From a virus (lineage: Duplodnaviria; Heunggongvirae; Uroviricota; Caudoviricetes), in IMG/VR virus record IMGVR_UViG_2675903417_000001, positions 1-47,318 of that record: a DNA stretch of 47,318 nucleotides; one strand, written 5' to 3'. The notes under the pieces are model-generated. The model saw only the letters and a list, made by a program, of their open reading frames with translations, made no database searches and was not told the DNA's origin. Below are positions 36,543 through 47,318 of this stretch, in pieces. The first letter of the stretch is position 1, and each line of letters opens with the position of its first letter. A program made the translations under genes and the position numbers.

Positions 36543-37104
36543 GCAAGATTGATTATCAGGCACTGCGTGCTAAGGCAGAAAAAGCAACGTGTGGCGAGTG
36601 GTCGCTCGAATATGGAGAGAGCCGATTTGAGGTGATGATGCGCTAATTCATCGTGAAGTTGCTGGATATATTCCCATTTGCAGAATTGAAGGAGCGCATC
36701 CAGAAAGCGGTTTCGATGAAGATTTCCAAATGGAACAGCAGGCCAATGCTGAATTCATCGCTGCAGCCAATCCGGCTACCGTCTTGGCGCTGCTGGGCGA
36801 GCTGGAAACAGCAAAAAAGCGCATAGCAGAACTGGAAGCCGAACTCGTAAGCCAAACTTACAAGTTGAACGAGCTATCGGGCAACTCTCCGGTAACTCCG
36901 GATGGTTGGATAAGCTGTAGTGAGCGAATGCCGGATACCAAAACAGCCGTTCTTGTTGCCGTGGAGTTTGACAGGAAAGGTGACTGGCGAATGAAATGGG
37001 CGACTTACATCCCGGGTCATCCTGACGCTAATGATGGGTGGATAATTCCTGGTGCGTCGTGGAAACCGTCACACTGGATGCCGCTACCAGAGCCTCCACT
37101 TTGA
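36539..37104 (+). pseudogene. Ea22/Ead-like protein with C-terminal DUF551, apparently split by a frameshift
   Basis: GTG 36539 ORF '[22 protein letters not shown]...' stops at 36646; a second frame is open from 36631 and continues as ORF 36730-37104 ('ELETAKKRIAELEAEL...GWISCSERMPDT...SHWMPLPEPP' DUF551-like). Confidence 0.35.
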
Positions 37105-37200
37105 AAGCGAAGCTTATACATATCTTTTACATCAGCAATCTATTGTTAATCTCCAATCAATGTTACGTTGTCATCTCACTCATGCTTTGGAGGTAGTGAT

Positions 37201-37380
37201 ATGTCTTGTCCAAAATGCGGTTCTGGAAATATTGCAAAAGAAAAAACAATGCGTGGATGGTCTGGTGATTATGTGTGCTGCGATTGCGGATACAACGACT
37301 CTAAAGACGCATTTGGAGAGCGTGGTAAAAACGAGTTTGTCAAAATTAATAAAGAACGCGAAGGCAACGAAAAAAGCTAA
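37201..37380 (+). CDS. small zinc-ribbon protein
   Basis: ORF 37168-37380; likely start ATG 37201 with GGAGG 7 nt upstream; 'CPKCGSG...CCDCG'. Confidence 0.45.
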   Translation: MSCPKCGSGNIAKEKTMRGWSGDYVCCDCGYNDSKDAFGERGKNEFVKINKEREGNEKS

Positions 37381-37443
37381 TTTATTTATTCATATATGAA
37401 AACAATGTAACCAATATTCGAATTGAAGAACTGAAAGAACACC

Positions 37444-37468
37444 AAGCCGCCTGATGGCGGTTTTTTTA
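37444..37468 (+). terminator. strong intrinsic terminator at end of prophage early-left operon
   Basis: Hairpin CCGCC-TGAT-GGCGG followed by TTTTTTT. Confidence 0.6.
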
Positions 37469-37477
37469 TTACCTGAT

Positions 37478-37493
37478 TTGCAGGTTCGATTCC
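37478..37493 (+). other. tRNA-like fragment (T-arm/T-loop, TTGCAGGTTCGATTCC); candidate att-site remnant
   Basis: Contains T-loop consensus GGTTCGATTCC but flanks cannot fold into a T-stem or acceptor stem; matches part of the 3' half of tRNA-Arg(CCU) argW as I recall it. Confidence 0.35.
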
Positions 37494-37512
37494 CTATTCG
37501 GAGATAGCACTC

Positions 37513-37713
37513 ATGCAACACGAACTACAACCTGATTCACTGGTTGATTTGAAATTCATCATGGCTGATACTGGCTTTGGTAAAACCTTCATCTACGACC
37601 GGATTAAGTCCGGCGACCTGCCAAAAGCCAAAGTTATCCACGGGCGAGCAAGATGGTTATATCGTGACCATTGTGAATTCAAAAATAAGCTCTTAAGCCG
37701 CGCCAATGGGTAA
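37513..37713 (+). CDS. AlpA/Xis-like HTH DNA-binding protein
   Basis: 66-aa ORF; 'LKFIMADTGFGKTFIYDRIKSGDLPKAKVIHGRARWLYRDHCEF' fits the AlpA/excisionase pattern; lies between the two tRNA-like fragments. Confidence 0.55.
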   Translation: MQHELQPDSLVDLKFIMADTGFGKTFIYDRIKSGDLPKAKVIHGRARWLYRDHCEFKNKLLSRANG

Positions 37714-37786
37714 AATAGCGGGTAAAATATTTTTCACATCTAAAAAACACCATTCCAATCAATCCCCTGCTGCTTCAAGTAGATGT

Positions 37787-37799
37787 CTGCAGGGGACAC
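37787..37799 (+). other. tRNA 3'-acceptor-like fragment (CTGCAGGGGACAC); candidate attL core of the integrase element
   Basis: About 175 bp upstream of the integrase start; part of an 8-bp inverted repeat TCCCCTGC...GCAGGGGA (37763-37796); matches the 3' end of argW as recalled. Confidence 0.35.
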
Positions 37800-37972
37800 T
37801 TTAAAGACCTTTCTCTACATTTCACTTCATTACATAACCACTTAAAAAACAGTAAGTTATCACCGAATCGGCCTGATTTTCATTTCAGTTAATTTCATGA
37901 CATTACAACCTCGTGATGGTATAAGTGATGGTATTCCCCAGTTCGATATGCAGATACCATCAATTTACCAAA

Positions 37973-39259
37973 ATGAGTACAGATATGGCCATTAATGTGC
38001 TTTCCCCCAAACAGATAGAAAACGCCAAGCCGAAGACCAATGATTACAAACTTACCGATGGAGGGAGTTTGTATCTACTGGTACGAAAGACTGGTGGAAA
38101 ATACTGGCGTATGAATTATCGTTTTGATGGAAAACAAGTGACATTGGCATTAGGGGTCTACCCAGATGTCTCACTTGCAACAGCGCGGAAACGGCGTGAT
38201 GAAGCCAGGCAACTACTAACCGATGGTCGTGATCCTCGCGAAGCAAAGAAACCCAAAAAGGAAGACCCAATTTCCCCCACGTTCGAGAGTGTTGCCAGAG
38301 AGTGGCATAGTGGAACGATGGGGCATCCTGAGTGGAAAGAGATCACCCGTAAAAAAATTCTCCGAGAAATGGAAAACCACCTCTTTCCTGCCATCGGTTC
38401 AAAGCCTATCGATACGCTCAAAACCCGTGACTTGATGCCGATGCTGGTTGAGATGACTGAGAAAGGAATTGGTGCCACAACGAGCCGGGTAAAAACCACT
38501 ATGACGAGCATCTTCCGTTATGCAGTGCAACGTGGAATTGTCGATTACAACCCTGCCCACGATCTAAAAGGTGCAATTACGGCCCCCAAAGTACGACATC
38601 GCCCCGCACTACCTCTCGAACGTTTACCTGAACTGTTAGCGAAAACGAGAAGTTACACGGGAAGACCATTGACTCGCCTAGCAGTTCTCTTTTCCCTGCA
38701 CACTTTTGTGCGATCCAGCGAACTACGACATGCCAGATGGGAGGAGATCGACATTGAAAATGGGCTATGGACGATACCAGGACAACGTGAAGAGATCGCA
38801 GGGGTTAAATTCTCAGATCGGGGTGCAAAGATGGGGGCTGCTCATTATGTCCCGCTATCTAGTCAGGCTATCGGGGTACTGGAGGATATAAGGAAAATCA
38901 GTGGTGAATATCTGCTGGTTTTCCCCGGTGACAGCAACCCATATAAACCGATGAGCGAAAACACAGTTAATAAAGCACTGCGAACGATGGGTTACGACAC
39001 TCAAACTGATGTATGCTTGCATGGGTTCAGGGCGATGGCCTGCTCTGCACTGACCGAATCAGGACTCTGGTCACGCGATGCAGTTGAACGGCAGATGAGT
39101 CACCAAGAAAGAAACGAAGTGCGGGCAGCATATGTGCATCTTGCGCAGCACATGCAGGAACGCCGCAGAATGATGCAATGGTGGTCTAATTATCTGGAAC
39201 TAAATAAGGACGAATTTCATGCTCCTTATGACTTATCAGGTATTAACATTATCAATTAA
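37973..39259 (+). CDS. int: P4-type tyrosine integrase
   Basis: ORF 37925-39259 (GTG); likely start ATG 37973 or 37985. N-terminal 'AKPKTNDYKLTDGGSLYLLVRKTGGKYWRMNYRFDGKQVTLALGVYPDVSLATARKRRDEAR' is typical of the P4 integrase arm-binding domain; C-terminal catalytic region with 'HGFRAM' and 'RAAYVHL'. Confidence 0.85.
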   Translation: MSTDMAINVLSPKQIENAKPKTNDYKLTDGGSLYLLVRKTGGKYWRMNYRFDGKQVTLALGVYPDVSLATARKRRDEARQLLTDGRDPREAKKPKKEDPISPTFESVAREWHSGTMGHPEWKEITRKKILREMENHLFPAIGSKPIDTLKTRDLMPMLVEMTEKGIGATTSRVKTTMTSIFRYAVQRGIVDYNPAHDLKGAITAPKVRHRPALPLERLPELLAKTRSYTGRPLTRLAVLFSLHTFVRSSELRHARWEEIDIENGLWTIPGQREEIAGVKFSDRGAKMGAAHYVPLSSQAIGVLEDIRKISGEYLLVFPGDSNPYKPMSENTVNKALRTMGYDTQTDVCLHGFRAMACSALTESGLWSRDAVERQMSHQERNEVRAAYVHLAQHMQERRRMMQWWSNYLELNKDEFHAPYDLSGINIIN

Positions 39260-39289: not shown

Positions 39290-40171
39290 ATGCAGCATTC
39301 AACAGAGAATGAAACTATATTCTTAGGAAATCTATGGATTGACAAAAAAATACCACCATTAGAATATTGTTCATTTGAACGCGCTTCAAGACTATTAGAA
39401 TGCGAGATTGATGATTTATTACACCTATACGAAATAGGCGCTTTTAATATCGCATTCAAGGCGGATGGACTTGCAGTTAGATTTAATGTTAATTTCCTCA
39501 ATAAAAATCAGAAAATGGAAATTGACTTAATTCATCCCGTATTAACTAATCAATCACTAGAGATGGAGTTTTCAACAATATGGTATGACCTTAAAGATGA
39601 TTCCTTTGAACATTTTGAAAATGGGCTTCAAATTATAGGATTTGCCTGTGGTATTTGGTACGCCGATGATATGATAAGTGACATAAAAAATGGATTAGCT
39701 ATAGATCCAGATTATGAATTCAGGCTTAAACCGGTAAAAATACGAGATAATGTTTTGATGGCAACGGCCTCATATGAAGGAAATAAGGTCATTGATATTC
39801 CATTTGAAGATCTTCTTATCATGCGAAGAGATTTAGAGTTAATATGGAAATCAGTAAAAACTGGAATTCCTATGCCAAGTTTACTTACGAAAAGAATTTC
39901 ATCTGAACCTAAAATCCCCAAGCGATTAAATAACACTGCTGAGCATCATGCAAAAAATAGGGAGGGGTTATTAAATGCAGCCATATATATTTTAGCAAAA
40001 TACCCAAGCGAATGTCGTGGTGAAAGAAAAGAGATAAGTCCTGAAAAGTGGACTAACGCCATAATTAAACATTTAGGAGAGCTACCTCCAATATTTATCA
40101 CTAATGAACAAGAAATCTTAAGAAAATTACGATTAGCGGTTAATCATGCGGGGTTAAAACAAAAGGGGTAG
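39290..40171 (+). CDS. hypothetical AT-rich cargo protein (293 aa)
   Basis: ORF starting 31 nt after int stop; visibly low GC relative to int and downstream satellite genes; no motif recognised. Confidence 0.6.
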   Translation: MQHSTENETIFLGNLWIDKKIPPLEYCSFERASRLLECEIDDLLHLYEIGAFNIAFKADGLAVRFNVNFLNKNQKMEIDLIHPVLTNQSLEMEFSTIWYDLKDDSFEHFENGLQIIGFACGIWYADDMISDIKNGLAIDPDYEFRLKPVKIRDNVLMATASYEGNKVIDIPFEDLLIMRRDLELIWKSVKTGIPMPSLLTKRISSEPKIPKRLNNTAEHHAKNREGLLNAAIYILAKYPSECRGERKEISPEKWTNAIIKHLGELPPIFITNEQEILRKLRLAVNHAGLKQKG

Positions 40172-40273: not shown

Positions 40274-40489
40274 ATGACATTAAAAACTTATCCTATCACT
40301 GGACATGCCCGCCCACGAGCTACTGCTGACTTTTTGCAAATAAGTACGGTTACTCTCTGGCGCTGGGAAAAGAACAATCCTGAATTTCCCAAATCTATAC
40401 GCATTTCAAAACGGGTATCTGTTTACGATGCACAAGAAATTAGGCAGTGGGTTAAAGCTCAATCAGCAGGATTGGAGGAAGTAGTGTAA
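40274..40489 (+). CDS. alpA: AlpA-family transcriptional regulator
   Basis: 71-aa ORF; 'DFLQISTVTLWRWEKNNPEFPKSIRISKRVSVYDAQEIRQWV' fits AlpA HTH pattern. Confidence 0.7.
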   Translation: MTLKTYPITGHARPRATADFLQISTVTLWRWEKNNPEFPKSIRISKRVSVYDAQEIRQWVKAQSAGLEEVV

Positions 40490-40849: not shown

Positions 40850-41026
40850 ATGGCTAAACAGAAGTGTACCTGGTTATTTGCGGCGATCAACCGCAGTCAA
40901 CGTAATGCCCGTCCGGTGATGTTAAGGATCATCGCAGATAACGAACGATCAGCGCGGCGCAGACTTGCCCCGGACTATGTACTGAGCTTTGCCGGGCGCA
41001 TTCCCTGCGGAGGTGAACATGCGTAA
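40850..41026 (+). CDS. Icd-like small protein
   Basis: ORF 40796-41026; likely start ATG 40850 with GAGG 8 nt upstream; 'WLFAAINRSQRNARPVMLRIIADNERSARRRLAPDYVLSFAGRIP' resembles Icd-like proteins of P4-like elements as recalled. Confidence 0.45.
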   Translation: MAKQKCTWLFAAINRSQRNARPVMLRIIADNERSARRRLAPDYVLSFAGRIPCGGEHA

Positions 41027-41378
41027 TTATCCGCACCCCGGCGAACGCTGGCAGCATGAACGTGGCTGGACGGTCACGATTATCCGATTAATAGAAGCCT
41101 CGCCCTCTGTGGCGCTGGTTAATCCTGAATTCAGCTGTGAAGTGCTGATACGTCATGACAGCGACAACCAGCTATCCTCCTGCCCTCTGGCATGGTTTGA
41201 ACAGCGGTATACGCGCCTGTTTGATGTACCGCTCTTTAAGCCTGCACCAGCTCCTGCAGGCGGTAGTGGTTCCGGCCCGCTGACACTGCATCCGTCTGTG
41301 CTATTTATCCGCTGGCGGGAGCGTAGCATATGGCGCTCTGCTGAGCCTGACGACGGTCACTATTCAAAGTTTCTCTGA
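41019..41378 (+). CDS. hypothetical protein
   Basis: ORF 40989-41378; likely start ATG 41019 with GGAGG 5 nt upstream, overlapping upstream stop. Confidence 0.4.
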   Translation: MRNYPHPGERWQHERGWTVTIIRLIEASPSVALVNPEFSCEVLIRHDSDNQLSSCPLAWFEQRYTRLFDVPLFKPAPAPAGGSGSGPLTLHPSVLFIRWRERSIWRSAEPDDGHYSKFL

Positions 41379-41409
41379 CAAAATACCGCTGAAAACGGAG
41401 TAATCCACG

Positions 41410-41694
41410 ATGAATATTTCAAACGGGCACAACGGTGCTCAGGGCCACACTTTGCCTGAAAAACACAATACCGGTGCTTTTGCCTATGGGTTGTCAGAGG
41501 ACAGTTTCGGAAAGCTGACCCGCGCAAGAAATGCCTGCGACATGCTCCAGCTTCTCTTTTCTGAATACCCGTCTCAGGCCGGAGCACTGGACGCTGGCTG
41601 TGCGCATGGTGTCGCCGCGCTGATGGAGTACCTGCTGGCAGATTTGACGGATATTGCACACAGCTGCGCACTGATTGAAGGAGGTGCCAGATGA
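41410..41694 (+). CDS. hypothetical protein
   Basis: 94-aa ORF upstream of primase; overlaps next start. Confidence 0.4.
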   Translation: MNISNGHNGAQGHTLPEKHNTGAFAYGLSEDSFGKLTRARNACDMLQLLFSEYPSQAGALDAGCAHGVAALMEYLLADLTDIAHSCALIEGGAR

Positions 41695-42074
41695 ACCAGC
41701 CGCAGGTTTCCATTTTCCCGGCAGAAATGACCACCGCGCTTTACCGGCGGGCTATTGCTTCAGCATGGCGGCAGAAAATGCTGAACGAAACTGGCAGTGA
41801 TCAGTATGGTCCGCACAGCCTGACGGTGGAGCGTATTGAAATGGCCATTGCGCTGCATATCGAGTGCGTACTGATTAACGAGTACGGCGAAGTGCAGGGC
41901 GCCGCTGCCGCGCTGGCACTGCTGACTGACATGCTGGAGCCGTCACTGCTGACCGCGCCGCCGGTACTGACCGCGCGCGGCTGTGAAGTGATGGCGGAGA
42001 TGTACCGCACGCTTCCGGCGGCCTTTGATGACTTCTGCAGTACCGGTGTGACGTTGTATGAGGGGGAAGTATGA
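41691..42074 (+). CDS. hypothetical protein
   Basis: 127-aa ORF coupled to primase gene (ATGA overlap). Confidence 0.4.
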   Translation: MNQPQVSIFPAEMTTALYRRAIASAWRQKMLNETGSDQYGPHSLTVERIEMAIALHIECVLINEYGEVQGAAAALALLTDMLEPSLLTAPPVLTARGCEVMAEMYRTLPAAFDDFCSTGVTLYEGEV

Positions 42075-44743
42075 CAATACAGACGGTTACGCAGATTTCA
42101 GCCGCCGCACGGGGGAAATGGCCCGTTATTCTGCAGATGCTGCGTATTGATGTACCTGAAAACGGCAGGCACGGTCCCTGCCCGAAATGTGGGGGCAAGG
42201 ATCGTTTTCGCCTTGATGACCTTGACGGGCGCGGGACGTGGATCTGCAGCCAGTGTGGCAATGGTGACGGTCTGGATCTGGTTAAGCTCGTAACCGGTTA
42301 CAGCGTCAGAAAGGCTGCGCAGGAGGTGGCGCAGGTGCTTAATGTGCCGGATGTGCAGGAACTGCCTGTTAAGCCTGCCAGACAAAAAGCCCCTAAACGC
42401 GACATGGGTCTTACCGTGGCGGCGCTGATGAAAGAGAGCCACACGGGAGAAAGCGCCTATCTGACAGGAAAAGGGTTCGCCGGATACCCGGCCTCTCTGA
42501 CCGGAAGCGTGCAGCATATCAGCGGTAAGGATTTTCCTGCCGGTTCCCTGCTGTTACCACTCACGACCAACACCGGAGCCGTGACCGGTGCACAGCTTAT
42601 CGCCCCGACGGGTGAAAAAAGCATACTGCCCGGCAGCACGATGAAAGGCGCGTTTGTGTCGCTCAGCCCGTTACCGTCTGAACCACCGGTACAGGTGGTG
42701 ATTACCGAAGGTTACGCTACGGCGCTGACGGTAAGCCAGCTCACTGCCGGATGCGTAGTGGCTGCCATATCTGCGGGCAACCTGCCCAATGTGGCGCAGT
42801 CGCTGCGGGCACGCTGGCCTGAGGTAAAAATTATCATCGCCGGTGATAACGATTTTCAGGACGGGGGTGAGAATCCCGGCAGAGCCTTTGCTGAACGGGC
42901 GGCAAAAGCTGTTGGCGGCTGGATGACGCTGCCACCAGGAGAGATTAAGGCTGACTGGAATGACTTTCATCGGGAGCACGGTATTACCCGTGCCCGTGAA
43001 GCCTTTCGCAACGGTCTGGTACTGTGCGGGGAAGGCCGCACGCAACTGCCGCACGGGTTCCGTCTTACCCAGGAATATCTCTGGTATGAAAAGCAGGTAC
43101 AGCGCAACGGTGAGACGGAGATCCAGAACGTCAAAATATGCAGCCCGCTGCGCGTGACGGCAATCACCTGCGATGCCGATGGCGGTAACTTCGGACGACT
43201 GCTGGAATGGGAAGATACGTGGGGTGAGTGTCGCCGCTGGGCGATGCCGATGGAAATGCTGAGCGGCAGTGGTGAGGAACTGCGCCGGGTACTGCTGGTT
43301 AACGGGCTGTCTTATATCAGCACCACCGGTGAGGCACGCGCACGCCTGATGGAATATATCTCACTGTGTAAACCGGAACGCCGCGTGACCTGCGTCAGTC
43401 GTACTGGCTGGCATGGTCAGGTTTACGTCCTGCAGGATGAGGTCAGCGGTGAAGGTGCAGAGGGTGTCATTCTCCAGACCACTTCCGTGCAGGGGCGTGA
43501 TTTCCGCGTGTCGGGCACAACAGAGGAATGGCGGGAGCATGTATCCCGCTACTGTACCGGCAACTCCCGCGTGGCATTTGCTGTCAGCCTGGCCTTTGCT
43601 GCACCACTGTTACGGCTGGTTGGTATGGACGGCGGCGGCTACCACCTCAAAGGGGAATCGACAGACGGTAAGACCACCACCATGAAAGCGGCAACCTCCG
43701 TCTGCGGCGGGCCTGACTACTGGCAGACATGGCGGGCCACCGGCAACGCGCTGGAGGGATGCGCCAGCCGCCGCAACGATGCTGCCATGATGCTTGATGA
43801 GATCCGGGAAGTTGACGGACGCGAGGCAGGCAATATCGCCTACATGCTGGCAAACGGTCAGGGCAAGGGCCGTGCCGGTACGGACGGTGAGCTGCGTACC
43901 CGTAAGCAGTGGCGCCTGTTGTTCTTTTCAACTGGCGAGTTGTCTCTGACCGAACATGCGGCAAAGGCCGGTGAGCGTACTTTTGCCGGGATGGAAGTCA
44001 GGATGATCCAGATCCCCAGCGATTCCGGGAAGTTTGGCGTTTTTGAGGAGCTGCACGGCTTCGACAGCGGCAAGGCTCTGGCAGAGCATCTTGAATGGGC
44101 CACGTCCTGCTACTACGGTTCGCCGTTCCGGGAGTGGCTGAAAGCACTGACCGCTGATCTTAACGGACTAACGGCACAGGCAAAATCGCTGATGAAGGAA
44201 TATGCTGCCGCCCTGACTCCTAAAGATGCAGGCAATCAGGTGGGCCGGGCTGTGAACCGCTTTGCACTGGTGGCGATGGCAGGTGAACTGGCAACCCGTC
44301 TGGGTATCACCGGCTGGCCTGAGGGTGAAGCACTGCGGGCAACCCGCGTCTGCCTGAACGCATGGCTGAAAGATCGCGGGCACACCGCCAATCAGGAAGA
44401 TATCGCCGCACTGGAGCAGGTTCGCAGTTTCTTTACCGCGAATCAGTACAGCCGCTTTGCAGACTGGTATGACGAGCGCAACCGCCCCGGCAATATGGTG
44501 GGCTGGCGCAGGGTGGAGAAAGGCAGTACCGCGCAGGGCACGGAAGCTGTCACTACGTTCTATGTCATGCCGTCCGGCTGGAAAGAAATCTGCAGGGGAT
44601 TTGACCCGCGCAAGGTGGCGCGTCTGTGCGTAGATCGTGGATACCTGCTGCCCTCCACTGATGGCAAACTCCAGACAACCATTCGCCCGCCAGAGATGAA
44701 TCCCCGCAGGCTCTATGTCTTCAACAGCGAGGTGCCGGGTTAA
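42071..44743 (+). CDS. primase/helicase-type replication protein (zinc-ribbon + TOPRIM + C-terminal NTPase; P4 alpha-like)
   Basis: 890-aa ORF; zinc ribbon 'CPKCGGKDRFRLDDLDGRGTWICSQCG', TOPRIM 'VVITEGYATALTV...IIAGDND', Walker A-like 'GESTDGKTT'. Confidence 0.85.
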   Translation: MTIQTVTQISAAARGKWPVILQMLRIDVPENGRHGPCPKCGGKDRFRLDDLDGRGTWICSQCGNGDGLDLVKLVTGYSVRKAAQEVAQVLNVPDVQELPVKPARQKAPKRDMGLTVAALMKESHTGESAYLTGKGFAGYPASLTGSVQHISGKDFPAGSLLLPLTTNTGAVTGAQLIAPTGEKSILPGSTMKGAFVSLSPLPSEPPVQVVITEGYATALTVSQLTAGCVVAAISAGNLPNVAQSLRARWPEVKIIIAGDNDFQDGGENPGRAFAERAAKAVGGWMTLPPGEIKADWNDFHREHGITRAREAFRNGLVLCGEGRTQLPHGFRLTQEYLWYEKQVQRNGETEIQNVKICSPLRVTAITCDADGGNFGRLLEWEDTWGECRRWAMPMEMLSGSGEELRRVLLVNGLSYISTTGEARARLMEYISLCKPERRVTCVSRTGWHGQVYVLQDEVSGEGAEGVILQTTSVQGRDFRVSGTTEEWREHVSRYCTGNSRVAFAVSLAFAAPLLRLVGMDGGGYHLKGESTDGKTTTMKAATSVCGGPDYWQTWRATGNALEGCASRRNDAAMMLDEIREVDGREAGNIAYMLANGQGKGRAGTDGELRTRKQWRLLFFSTGELSLTEHAAKAGERTFAGMEVRMIQIPSDSGKFGVFEELHGFDSGKALAEHLEWATSCYYGSPFREWLKALTADLNGLTAQAKSLMKEYAAALTPKDAGNQVGRAVNRFALVAMAGELATRLGITGWPEGEALRATRVCLNAWLKDRGHTANQEDIAALEQVRSFFTANQYSRFADWYDERNRPGNMVGWRRVEKGSTAQGTEAVTTFYVMPSGWKEICRGFDPRKVARLCVDRGYLLPSTDGKLQTTIRPPEMNPRRLYVFNSEVPG

Positions 44744-44777
44744 GGCTTTGCGTGAGTCTTATTTATTAAGGGTAACA

Positions 44778-44965
44778 GGTGAAACAGGTGGAACAACCGT
44801 ATTTTACAGGGCTGAACCTGATCCACCTTCTGAAATAGTGAGGTGGAACAGATGTAACGCCAGCCAATCCGCTGTTCCACCTTGTTACCCGCGATGTTCC
44901 ACCGGTGCAGTGTATATAAATGCCTTATAAAACAAAGCAGTAACACATGTTTCACCTGTTCCACC
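44778..44965. repeat. iteron cluster (TGTT[C/T]CACC x7, both orientations); candidate satellite ori
   Basis: GGTGAAACA 44778, GGTGGAACA 44787 and 44842, TGTTCCACC 44873, 44895 and 44957, TGTTTCACC 44948; downstream of primase; resembles P4 type I iterons (TGTTCACC) as recalled. Confidence 0.55.
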
Positions 44966-45053
44966 GCATCAGGGACATAAAGCAGACTGAAACAGAGGGT
45001 ATTTTTATCTGGCTGGCTTTCATAGCCACGTCTGAATAACCGCAAGCGCCCGT

Positions 45054-45109
45054 TGTGCCAGCCACCACACACTGAGCACCGATAGTGTGCTTGTGTCAGC
45101 CACGACACA
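45054..45109 (+). promoter_or_regulatory. candidate Ogr/Delta-dependent late promoter upstream of sid
   Basis: Two TGT-N12-ACA dyads (45054-45071 and 45092-45109) 35-90 bp upstream of the sid ATG. Confidence 0.45.
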
Positions 45110-45143
45110 ATTGACGTAACGAACCAACCCGACAGGAGAAGTC

Positions 45144-45887
45144 ATGAACAACACCGCAGTGAATAACAACCTTTCCACTTTTCCGGCTGTAACGCAGCGG
45201 GCACTGGAAACCATGAACACAGCCAGAAACGCATGGCTTGAAGCACGTCGTCAGCAGAAAGCGGCAGCGGATAATATTGCGACAATCCGCCAGCGTCGCG
45301 CTGAAATGGAAGCCACGACGAACACACTGAATGAGGAGTGGCGCACGCTGTTTCGTGAAAGTCAGGGCGTGGTCTCAAAGGAAATGAAAAAACTGCGCAC
45401 GGAAATTGCGCTGGGACGAGAAACGCTTGAGGATTTTGATGAGCTGCTGGCGGCTCAGGAAAGCGAAAATGCACTTTTGCCGCAGAAAGCTGCGGAATTA
45501 GCCGGAAAGTATATCCACGCGCATAACATTCTTGTGGATATTCGCGCAAAACAAATCTGGGAAGATTTTATGCAGTCGCATGGAAAAGCGCTTATTCAGA
45601 CGCTGAGCCTGCTTAAATCCACAATGGGCCGGGAAGCCAGTGCCGTTGTGGGTGTGGTGAATTCAGTTAATGACCCGGACACAGTGCTGAAAGACTTTAT
45701 TCATAAACATATCACCAGACCGGCTCTGGCTAACGATGCGATGCCTGAACAGGACCCGGTGTTTAAACTGGCGGGAGTTGCCCCGGATTATGCGGCGCGT
45801 CTGGATTTCAGTAATCAACTCTCTCCGGCAGCTATGCATAAAATAAAGGTTCGTCAGGAACTTGCTGAGAAGGAGAAAGCAGTATGA
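45144..45887 (+). CDS. sid: Sid-like capsid size-determination protein
   Basis: 247-aa helical ORF immediately upstream of psu; size and position as P4 Sid; sequence not independently recognised. Confidence 0.5.
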   Translation: MNNTAVNNNLSTFPAVTQRALETMNTARNAWLEARRQQKAAADNIATIRQRRAEMEATTNTLNEEWRTLFRESQGVVSKEMKKLRTEIALGRETLEDFDELLAAQESENALLPQKAAELAGKYIHAHNILVDIRAKQIWEDFMQSHGKALIQTLSLLKSTMGREASAVVGVVNSVNDPDTVLKDFIHKHITRPALANDAMPEQDPVFKLAGVAPDYAARLDFSNQLSPAAMHKIKVRQELAEKEKAV

Positions 45888-46435
45888 CGGCCCGAGGCAC
45901 ACCTGACCAGGCACTTACCAGTTTTCGGAATGCCCGTATTCTGTGGGCCGGACATAGTGAGAGCCGAAAAGCCGTTGAACAACAGATAACATCTCTCCTC
46001 GCTGCCACAGAAAAACCAGCAGATTATGCCCGACAGCTCGAATTACTGCGGGAACGTCTGGATGTGCTGAAATGGCAAATTAACTGTGCTGCTCGGGAAT
46101 GCATTTACTCGCAGCATTTATTGATGGAGGCCTGCACAGAAGCTGCTCTCAGCAATTTTATGCAGGCGAATGGGGCAGCCCTGACATCTGCACTGGCTCC
46201 GTTCCTGAAGGGGCGCGGAGGGGTTGACGTTGCGTCCCGTATATTACGCAGTGCTCTGGTTCGCCAGCTGGCAATAACACCGCCTGAAATTGCCGGGGAT
46301 TATCGTGAGATCCTGGATGAATCCGGTTTGATGCCAGACCCCGGGATGATTCGTGATTGCCAGGGCTCTTACACCCCGGCACAACATCTGCGTTTTCAGC
46401 AACGCCTGAATGACATTAACGATATACAGGAGTGA
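45884..46435 (+). CDS. psu: Psu (polarity suppression / capsid decoration) protein
   Basis: 183-aa ORF; 'LKWQINCAARECI', 'NFMQANGAALTSALAPFL', 'YTPAQHLRF' align by eye with P4 Psu as recalled. Confidence 0.7.
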   Translation: MTARGTPDQALTSFRNARILWAGHSESRKAVEQQITSLLAATEKPADYARQLELLRERLDVLKWQINCAARECIYSQHLLMEACTEAALSNFMQANGAALTSALAPFLKGRGGVDVASRILRSALVRQLAITPPEIAGDYREILDESGLMPDPGMIRDCQGSYTPAQHLRFQQRLNDINDIQE

Positions 46436-46440
46436 TATTA

Positions 46441-46713
46441 ATGGCACTTAAATGTCCGGAATGCGGTACAGTTGCACACGCCAGAACAGCAGCCTATGAA
46501 GCTCCGTCAGTTAAACGCTCGTGGTATCAGTGCCAGAATCTGGAATGTTCCTGCACATTTACGGCACTGGAGAGTGTGGATAAGATAATCATGAAACCCC
46601 GGCGCAATGAACAGGAACCAGACAAATCACAAACCCCGGTAAAACAACAGCAAACGCTCAATCGCTATGGCTCCGCGTCAAAACTGTCAAGCCGTCAGCA
46701 GATTCCTGTCTAA
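46441..46713 (+). CDS. delta: Ogr/Delta-family zinc-finger late transcription activator
   Basis: ORF 46432-46713; from ATG 46441: 'MALKCPECGTVAHARTAAYEAPSVKRSWYQCQNLECSCTF' is the Ogr/Delta C2C2 pattern. Confidence 0.75.
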   Translation: MALKCPECGTVAHARTAAYEAPSVKRSWYQCQNLECSCTFTALESVDKIIMKPRRNEQEPDKSQTPVKQQQTLNRYGSASKLSSRQQIPV

Positions 46714-46733
46714 TTAGAAAAAAACGCCCACGT

Positions 46734-46760
46734 AATCCCGGTCGAGTACCGGGATTTTTA
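46734..46760 (+). terminator. intrinsic terminator after delta
   Basis: Hairpin AATCCCGGT-CGAGT-ACCGGGATT followed by TTTT. Confidence 0.5.
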
Positions 46761-46787
46761 ACACCTTTTCCCTGGCTGGCCTGAGAG

Positions 46788-46900
46788 CGCATGAGTGCAT
46801 GTCTATAGCGCATGAAAACGCATGAACCTTATGCACCATTTTTGACGAGAAAGCCCTTGTGTGGTGGCTTCTGAGACGATTTATGAGGTGCATGAAAACC
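46788..46900. repeat. cluster of GCATGA(A) direct repeats
   Basis: GCGCATGAG, TGCATG, GCGCATGAAAAC, GCATGAACC, ATGCACC and GTGCATGAAAACC within ~115 bp of non-coding DNA. Confidence 0.3.
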
Positions 46901-47198
46901 AGTCTGTTAAGCGAAGCGGGCAGGCGTGCGGGGCTGTTCGCATCAACATAAAAATAACGGGCTGATATAGTTATAAAATCAAATGAACTCTTTTAGTACG
47001 ACATGGGTATGTGCGCCAGTAGCAACGTCAGCCCCCAAGCTTTCTATTGTTCTTTTCTGTTGTACCATCAATACGTACCGATTAGCTCCTAAGCATCAAT
47101 ATCAGTTTGAACGTATTGCTTTGAACTAATTTTTAGATGATTTTTTTCATTAAAAAATTATAATGTTGTAGATAAAAAGAGAATCTTATAGAGGCGTT

Positions 47199-47318
47199 AT
47201 GTCAAATAAAGTTGATGTTTTTTTGAGCCGAGTTAGCCATGTATCACAGTTTGTATTGGTGGCATTTGCTATTTTTGGATATTTTTATACAGTAAGACCA
47301 ATTTACCAAAAGGAACTT
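47199..47318 (+). CDS. 5' end of an AT-rich ORF running out of the window (hydrophobic N-terminus)
   Basis: ATG 47199 with GAGG upstream; 'MSNKVDVFLSRVSHVSQFVLVAFAIFGYFYTVRPIYQKEL' open to window end. Confidence 0.3.
   Translation, partial: MSNKVDVFLSRVSHVSQFVLVAFAIFGYFYTVRPIYQKEL

Follow-up and report, generated by a model that had tools for sequence, protein, structure and literature searches.

The window analysed here, the whole stretch of 47,318 nucleotides, holds a prophage followed on its right by an integrase-bearing element. The prophage body was 95–97% identical to HK620/Sf6-type phages over the structural genes, and the window starts with an ISKox3-like end (1–148) beside a glycosyltransferase and a tailspike. 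The features around the seam and across the right-hand element are listed below.

37201–37380, + strand: Eag-like small gene, last of the prophage early-left (ea) region (RefSeq 'Eag protein' in sibling genomes; hkaD in HK620)
37444–37470, + strand: intrinsic terminator with an 8-bp stem, 4-nt loop and T run, directly upstream of the box (terminator scan)
37478–37493, + strand: T-arm-like box TTGCAGGTTCGATTCC, identical to argW, with the conserved core CAGGTTCGATTCC at 37481–37493
37513–37713, + strand: torI (hkaC in HK620, gene 18 in Sf6), assigned as the excisionase, or recombination directionality factor (RDF), of the prophage
Up to 37786: phage P arm left of the junction, comprising torI, the two GGGTAAAATA repeats and the inverted repeat
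37708–37717 and 37720–37729, + strand: two direct repeats GGGTAAAATA in the phage P arm (repeat search)
37763–37796: inverted repeat TCCCCTGC / GCAGGGGA, 18 nt between the arms, right arm inside the core
37787–37799, + strand: shared att core CTGCAGGGGACAC, placed by the end of the HK620 match, the start of the match to genomes with the satellite at argW, the HK620 'attP core' and alignment
37800–37984, + strand: int-proximal arm of the satellite, near-identical to the sequence after argW in NCTC11023
37985–39259, + strand: satellite tyrosine integrase, P4 type (Pfam Arm-DNA-bind_3, Phage_int_M and Phage_integrase)
40274–40489, + strand: satellite AlpA-family gene (Pfam PF05930, 31.6 bits against a cut-off of 21)
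40989–47318, + strand: rest of the satellite in the window, with Icd-like, DUF5375, primase, two Psu-like and Ogr/Delta genes
42071–44743, + strand: TOPRIM/DUF927 primase

At the positions of the satellite int and AlpA genes, RefSeq annotates an integrase of 1275 nt and an 'AlpA family transcriptional regulator' in sibling genomes, and the satellite was 99.3% identical to annotated loci over 9.6 kb. Judged by this gene content, with a P4-type integrase, AlpA, primase, Psu and Ogr/Delta in conserved order, the right-hand element is a P4-like satellite, the right att site of which lies past the window end. PADLOC returned no matches for three of its ORFs. P4-like satellites use P2-like helpers, so the arrangement implies no helper relationship with the P22-like phage. 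At the other side of the seam, the terminator hairpin recurs in HK620 and at the end of the CUS-3 record; a weak minus-strand Rfam match to STnc130 (26 bits against 55) is essentially this hairpin.

Two short strings flank torI. Each occurs once in the window, on the + strand, TTGCAGGTTCGATTCC at 37478–37493 and CTGCAGGGGACAC at 37787–37799; they share orientation and order, lie within 320 bp and are separated by 293 nt. Both are exact matches to E. coli tRNA-Arg(CCU) argW, the 3′ end of which we read as ...GGGCTAATTGCAGGTTCGATTCCTGCAGGGGACACCA in K-12, NCTC11023 and ETEC1720, and within argW they abut with a 1-nt overlap (one C common to both). Their co-occurrence is not due to chance, because by our own arithmetic the window is expected to contain only 94,636/4^16 = 2e-5 exact matches to the 16-mer and 1.4e-3 to the 13-mer. 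The first-pass annotation had given the same coordinates, sequences and orientation, and its attribution to the 3′ end of argW proved correct. It had also noted that no complete tRNA is present. Consistent with this, ARAGORN called 0 tRNA or tmRNA genes in the whole window, and Rfam yielded no family at the gathering score and no tRNA match even at E ≤ 10. Nor did a search that allowed up to 3 mismatches recover an uninterrupted argW 3′ half. We rejected a tRNA gene or pseudogene at the locus, as there was no cloverleaf or covariance match, just pieces of 16 and 13 nt. The 8-bp inverted repeat reported around the second string is real: its arms, TCCCCTGC at 37763–37770 and GCAGGGGA at 37789–37796, were 100% complementary in a repeat search. 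In loci of Edwardsiella and Rouxiella, changes in this repeat go together with changes in the tRNA 3′ end.

By homology, the gene between the strings is torI, the RDF of the IntS–TorI module of KplE1, HK620 and Sf6. Its 66 codons specify a product that matched the 'Tor inhibition protein' of PDB 1Z4H over residues 1–66 (E = 6.6e-43), RefSeq names the gene torI in sibling genomes, and tblastn identity was 100% in E. coli loci. TorI is the excisionase of a module that integrates in argW (PMC2951348, PMC3509656). The gene had earlier been called AlpA/Xis-like. TorI is a winged-helix excisionase, so the functional half of that guess holds, whereas AlpA-family identity was rejected: the product gave no match to AlpA (Pfam PF05930) above threshold, its sole Pfam match, HTH_17, scored 16.9 bits and fell below the cut-off of 27, and BLASTP found no similarity between TorI and the satellite AlpA (40274–40489).

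The seam between prophage and satellite

Homology to HK620, HK633 and Sf6 covers torI and ends at 37799, on the annotated 'attP core', and homology to NCTC11023 and many other genomes with the satellite directly at argW begins at 37787. The 13 nt shared by the two matches, CTGCAGGGGACAC, form the start of the 16-nt IntS core and the end of the 21-nt direct repeat of the satellite. In the window, the first 13 nt of the published 16-nt core, CTGCAGGGGACACCAT (PMC2951348), are followed by TTT (TTTAAAG...) in place of CAT. This TTTAAAG... after CTGCAGGGGACAC is exactly what follows argW in NCTC11023, in which the satellite is flanked at both ends by a 21-bp direct repeat, TTCGATTCCTGCAGGGGACAC. 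Because 37787–37799 is sequence common to the att sites of both elements, we interpret it as a hybrid site, with the attR of the prophage fused to the attL of the satellite in a tandem array that runs from argW to dsdC. A partial core of 13 of 16 nt, not the canonical core, is the form expected of a hybrid site in such an array. Sequence comparison established the identity of both junction halves and the exact break-points, and the homology breaks at 37799 and 37787 bear out the earlier proposal that the second string marks an att junction between a P22-like (here HK620-like) prophage and an integrase-bearing, P4-like satellite. The same junction was present in 10 of 5,426 complete E. coli genomes; in sibling genomes, the array lies between yfdC–argW and dsdC.

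The best explanation, and in our view a very probable one, is that the right end of an HK620/Sf6-like prophage and the left end of a P4-like satellite lie together in argW, with the 16-mer being a native box of torI. As such the seam is ordinary, an HK620-like prophage and a P4-like satellite standing head to tail at the known argW hotspot. On its left, the HK620 counterpart of 37708–37729 is annotated as 'repeat_region attP' and the same motif also occurs before int; we read the two GGGTAAAATA repeats (the HK620 attP repeats GGGTAAAAT) as putative IntS arm-type sites of the P arm. On its right, the satellite arm contains TGATGGTAT repeats at 37914–37922 and 37926–37934 and, inverted, at 37954–37962. 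The window has 4 occurrences of the motif TGATGGTAY where 0.48 would be expected; in NCTC11023 this motif clusters at both satellite ends. The NCTC11023 counterpart of 37800–37984 has one extra A in an A run.

The attP of the IntS–TorI module lies between torI and int (HK620, Sf6; also PMC8787464), so that a lysogen has torI at attR and intS at attL, adjoining argW. ETEC1720, which carries the same junction, reads yfdC, argW (75 nt, ...GACACCAT) and intS, ~40 kb away, and then a partial ISKox3. Since the window begins in an ISKox3-like end, the intS/attL end would lie outside it. The window is without attL/intS and the right end of the satellite, and we infer the full array from sibling genomes. 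The first-pass annotation had suggested that one P4-type Int/AlpA pair serves both elements. The data do not support this: intS is at the far end (ETEC1720), the satellite integrase shares only 30% identity with IntS, and the satellite has an AlpA of its own. Prophage and satellite are independent, with nothing shared and nothing split. The locus is resolved into a prophage with its integrase at the far end and its excisionase here, and a satellite with its own Int and AlpA.

In all three of the junction-bearing genomes examined, IS1 or the csc locus has eroded the right side of the satellite; in the third of these, IS1 and the csc locus come after the satellite. A right-hand copy of the satellite core was found in neither of the two tandem-array genomes scanned. 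Two routes could have produced the junction. The satellite may have arrived first, followed by IntS-mediated integration of the phage into the satellite-modified argW, or the satellite may have integrated into the attR of the prophage. In either case strand exchange must have fallen within CTGCAGGGGACAC, and this natural hybrid site thereby confines the possible exchange points to these 13 nt. The junction sequences fit either order. We infer that satellite first, then phage, is most likely because arrays usually grow by newcomers that use the intact tRNA, and because this order also restores the CCA end; when the P4-like satellite is the sole occupant, argW ends in CTT and no longer encodes the CCA. 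An intact array would have argW...GACACCAT–intS on the left and ...TTCGATTCCTGCAGGGGACACCATCC, possibly eroded, on the right. Phage excision would yield an attP of GATGTCTGCAGGGGACACCATTTATCAG and leave a site of ...ATTCCTGCAGGGGACACTTTAAAG.

The T-arm-like box upstream of torI

The two strings abut in argW and flank one small gene in the window, which could suggest that a single tRNA 3′ half was cut by an AlpA/Xis-like gene or a remnant of a third element, as the first-pass annotation had raised for the att core. In that case, the attP of relatives would be expected to carry a contiguous CAGGTTCGATTCCTGCAGGGGACACCAT block, with torI elsewhere. Instead, the 16-mer already precedes torI where there is no satellite, both in K-12 KplE1 and in the genomes of free HK620 and Sf6, so the order box–torI–core is native to the module. 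Experiments have characterised torI as the RDF belonging to this module, and we rejected its identity as a third element. In other genera, moreover, a T-loop remnant belonging to the core adjoins it on the left, (A/G)TTCGATGT(A/C)TGCAGGGG or, in an alternative rendering, (A/G)TTCGATGT(A/C)TGCAGGGGACACCAT. Most of these modules carry both the upstream box and the core-adjacent TTCGAT remnant, which indicates that the T-loop was duplicated, not split. In the E. coli lineage, the core-adjacent copy has drifted to GTAGATGT, giving the illusion of a clean split. We therefore consider a split tRNA half very unlikely.

Excision works in vitro with a 135-bp attR amplified with a primer that starts at the torI end (PMC3509656), and the 16-mer lies >200 bp outside this fragment. 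Because an attR lacking the 16-mer recombines, we exclude the first string from the att site; the comparisons point to TTGCAGGTTCGATTCC as no part of the junction but a native, conserved box before the excisionase gene. The CUS-3 record could be taken to say otherwise, as its two ends are TTGCAGGTTCGATTCC within argW and the copy of this 16-mer before torI, both annotated as cores, so that the real route of excision would join the argW T-arm to the box. However, the CUS-3 Int is 99% identical to HK620 IntS, the experimentally used core is CTGCAGGGGACACCAT, and in S88 torI and then dsdC come after the point at which the CUS-3 record ends. Excision at the 16-mer would also truncate argW and leave torI behind, and other genera share ≤13 nt with the tRNA at the box. 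A second true core at this position is extremely unlikely.

Genomes and IMG/VR contigs supplied 201 loci of TorI homologues, with 87 distinct sequences upstream of the gene. A first IMG/VR scan had returned only sequences 100% identical to TorI, and the use of diverged homologues as queries added diversity. The motif GGTTCGATTCC, with ≤1 mismatch, was present in 56 of the 87 upstream sequences and started 27–30 nt before the ATG in 54 of these 56. The lineages with the box come from, or resemble, Escherichia, Citrobacter, Salmonella (phage g341c), Erwinia, Pantoea, Serratia, Edwardsiella and Hafnia, and among them the flanks on either side of the box are unrelated. When 12 lineages were aligned with MAFFT, anchored independently of the box, mean column conservation was 0.97 in the box, compared with 0.98 in the best coding stretch, and the 5′ flank was unconserved. 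Mean pairwise identity was 0.58 at third codon positions and 0.32 in the 5′ flank, compared with 0.90 in the box, a value inflated by anchoring on GTTCGATT. Two tandem copies of the box are present in Erwinia phage Midgardsormr38 and its relatives. Together, these comparisons describe CAGGTTCGATTCC as an island of conservation ~30 nt upstream of the torI ATG across many genera. The box was absent from Klebsiella phages, a Cronobacter-type TorI lineage (IMG/VR contigs), Dryocola, Tatumella and Arsenophonus. The same core lies downstream in the box-less Klebsiella, Dryocola and Tatumella loci and in one Arsenophonus locus, which argues that the box is dispensable for recombination. Single E. coli variants had point changes inside the box.

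Possible roles of the box

Public records disagree on the box, which HK620 presents as a cII-dependent promoter and CUS-3 as an att core. In the GenBank annotations of HK620 and Sf6 the 16-mer falls within a predicted cII-dependent, pI-type promoter, which would make its likeness to argW incidental; HK620 labels it 'promoter: phage integration' with a cII site, TTGCCTGATTTGC, the second TTGC of which begins the 16-mer. The half-sites of lambda and P22 cII/C1 have N6 spacing, whereas the spacing here is TTGC-N5-TTGC, and the first half-site is TTAC in the window and in K-12. Edwardsiella, Hafnia, Erwinia and Pantoea lineages have the box with no TTGC repeat, and a scan of 37100–38050 found no sigma-70-like promoter. 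Such a promoter would drive the excisionase gene, for which an integration promoter is unfit. We regard this reading as improbable. A role in RNA structure was rejected for 37440–37540, which offered the terminator hairpin and weak long-range pairs that, by eye, are unconserved elsewhere.

The position of the box suggests another function. It lies 6 nt upstream of the torI Shine–Dalgarno sequence GGAG (37500–37503), contains a GTTCG pentamer at 37484–37488 inside CAGGTTCGATTCC, and corresponds to the part of argW that borders the crossover region of attB and attL on its 5′ side. Five TorI sites have been mapped, in which the pentamers GTTCG, GATCG and GTCCG were mutated to CAAGC (PMC2951348). 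IntS and TorI repress intS at attL (module roles: PMC2951348, PMC3509656). The box could be a protein-binding site that mimics the left (tRNA) half of attB. IntS and/or TorI, the latter through GTTCG, would then modulate torI expression from this candidate site, and feedback on torI at the attR end would mirror the known repression of intS by IntS and TorI at attL. Reasoning by this analogy, we tentatively put forward CAGGTTCGATTCC as a possible cis-regulatory site copied from the tRNA half of attB, through which the core-binding domain of IntS and/or TorI would feed back on the excisionase. The box fits the extended context of TorI sites in the pentamer only and not in the flanks: its flanking bases (A at −2, A at +1 after the pentamer) occurred at 0 of 25 GTTCG sites of int-proximal arms, and this mismatch weakens the reading of the box as a TorI operator.

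A functionless origin was also considered, in which the 16-mer is an old duplication or capture of argW, from an old array or an imprecise excision, kept by linkage to torI. The identity to argW over 13–16 nt would fit this, as would the position of the 16-mer on the left edge of the conserved module, a place at which one expects mosaic joints, the several lineages that retain the module without the box, and the rare point variants of the box in E. coli. However, the box is a conserved island with unrelated flanks in lineages only 58% identical at synonymous sites, stands at a constant distance from the ATG and has undergone an independent tandem duplication. A fossil would fit this island-like pattern poorly, and we think it rather unlikely. 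A full-text search for the 16-mer returned only tRNA probe papers within the library searchable to us. The conserved T-arm box before torI is thus of modest novelty, with no earlier description found in that library; it flags a short, strongly conserved tRNA-like element before a well-studied excisionase gene.

Comparison with known systems

The argW–dsdCXA region is cited as a hypervariable island (Moritz & Welch 2006, as cited in PMC9659370 and PMC8787464). The attR of KplE1 (CPS-53) in K-12 and the attP of HK620 and Sf6 are the closest counterparts of the left half of the seam: their order of box, torI, GGGTAAAAT, inverted repeat and CTGCAGGGGACAC is 97–99% identical to the window, and the target argW and the RDF TorI are the same. 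The difference begins within the core, the last 3 nt of which (CAT), together with everything downstream, are replaced by the satellite (TTT AAAG...) in the window. Downstream of the core lies the dsdC side in K-12, the int arm in the free phages and the satellite in the window.

The right half of the seam matches the satellite at argW in NCTC11023, which from 37787 onwards has the same sequence and TGATGGTAT arm repeats and the same gene order of int, hypothetical gene, AlpA, Icd-like, primase, Psu and Ogr/Delta. By contrast, its left flank is the intact argW body with the full 21-bp TTCGATTCCTGCAGGGGACAC, whereas the window has the phage P arm and 13 of the 21 nt.

CUS-3 (GenBank CP000711) differs in its annotation. 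Its 16-nt attL and attR cores are exactly TTGCAGGTTCGATTCC, and the record stops just short of torI and the IntS core. The annotated 'att core' looks like a boundary call on a direct repeat and not a functional core, and the record as deposited, without torI and the real attR, is an inconsistency in public annotation.

As in tandem arrays of integrative elements at tRNA genes generally, a single tRNA 3′ end serves two elements, each with its own integrase, and the middle site combines the right arm of one with the left arm of the other; the window shows no essential departure from this.

The argW 3′ end and the inverted repeat at the core

Where a P4-like satellite lies directly at argW, as in NCTC11023, we found that the tRNA gene end reads ...GGGGACAC followed by TTTAAAG (L005 3941–4020; corresponding to window 37787–37806), with CTT in place of the genomically encoded CCA. 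In RefSeq, this satellite-occupied argW is annotated as a tRNA-Arg of 72 nt. When an IntS phage (KplE1/HK620/Sf6 type) integrates upstream of the satellite, ...GACACCAT is restored at the argW end.

[quoted passage not shown] The arms are TCCCTGCATA and TATGCAGGGA in Edwardsiella, and CCCCTACA and TGTAGGGG in Rouxiella. This co-variation suggests that the repeat is a functional site pair or hairpin rather than a coincidence.

The satellite and the left edge of the window

The window has three further features outside the junction.

39290–40171: 293-amino-acid ORF, flanked by the satellite integrase and AlpA
1–148: end of an ISL3-family ISKox3-like element, inside which the window begins
243–1463: glycosyltransferase-2 moron, adjoining the ISKox3-like end, with the tailspike also nearby

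The 293-amino-acid ORF had no match in Pfam or PADLOC; it is kept in sibling satellites, where it is annotated as 'hypothetical protein'. In ETEC1720, a partial ISKox3 occupies the place equivalent to the left edge, with intS on one side and the tailspike region on the other.

The right side of the satellite is eroded or replaced in three genomes that share the junction (ETEC1720, Z1322HEC0003 and CUVET17-972; L003, L004 and L214), by IS1 and by the csc sucrose locus, which stands where dsdC/dsdX would be expected. No right-hand core copy of the satellite was found in the two of these genomes that were scanned. These satellites probably cannot move by themselves.

Junction variants, tandem boxes and the CUS-3 record

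In some genomes of ST131 and other strains (hits H156–H168), the match to our query ends at window 37842, with approximately 92% identity. These genomes carry torI and the core, then approximately 43 nt resembling the satellite arm, then different sequence, and this locus may be a related island or remnant.

The box upstream of torI (in the window the T-arm 16-mer shared with argW, 37478–37493) occurs twice in tandem with a 16-nt period in Erwinia-type phages (L008 1765–1812; also L139 and L170), and twice at a 13-nt period in one IMG/VR contig (L124). The same 16-mer forms both limits of the CUS-3 GenBank record (CP000711), where it is annotated as the attL and attR core (L007 1538–1553; L011 1–16). 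Bounded in this way, the record therefore lacks torI and the real IntS core, both of which directly follow the point in S88 that corresponds to the CUS-3 record limit.
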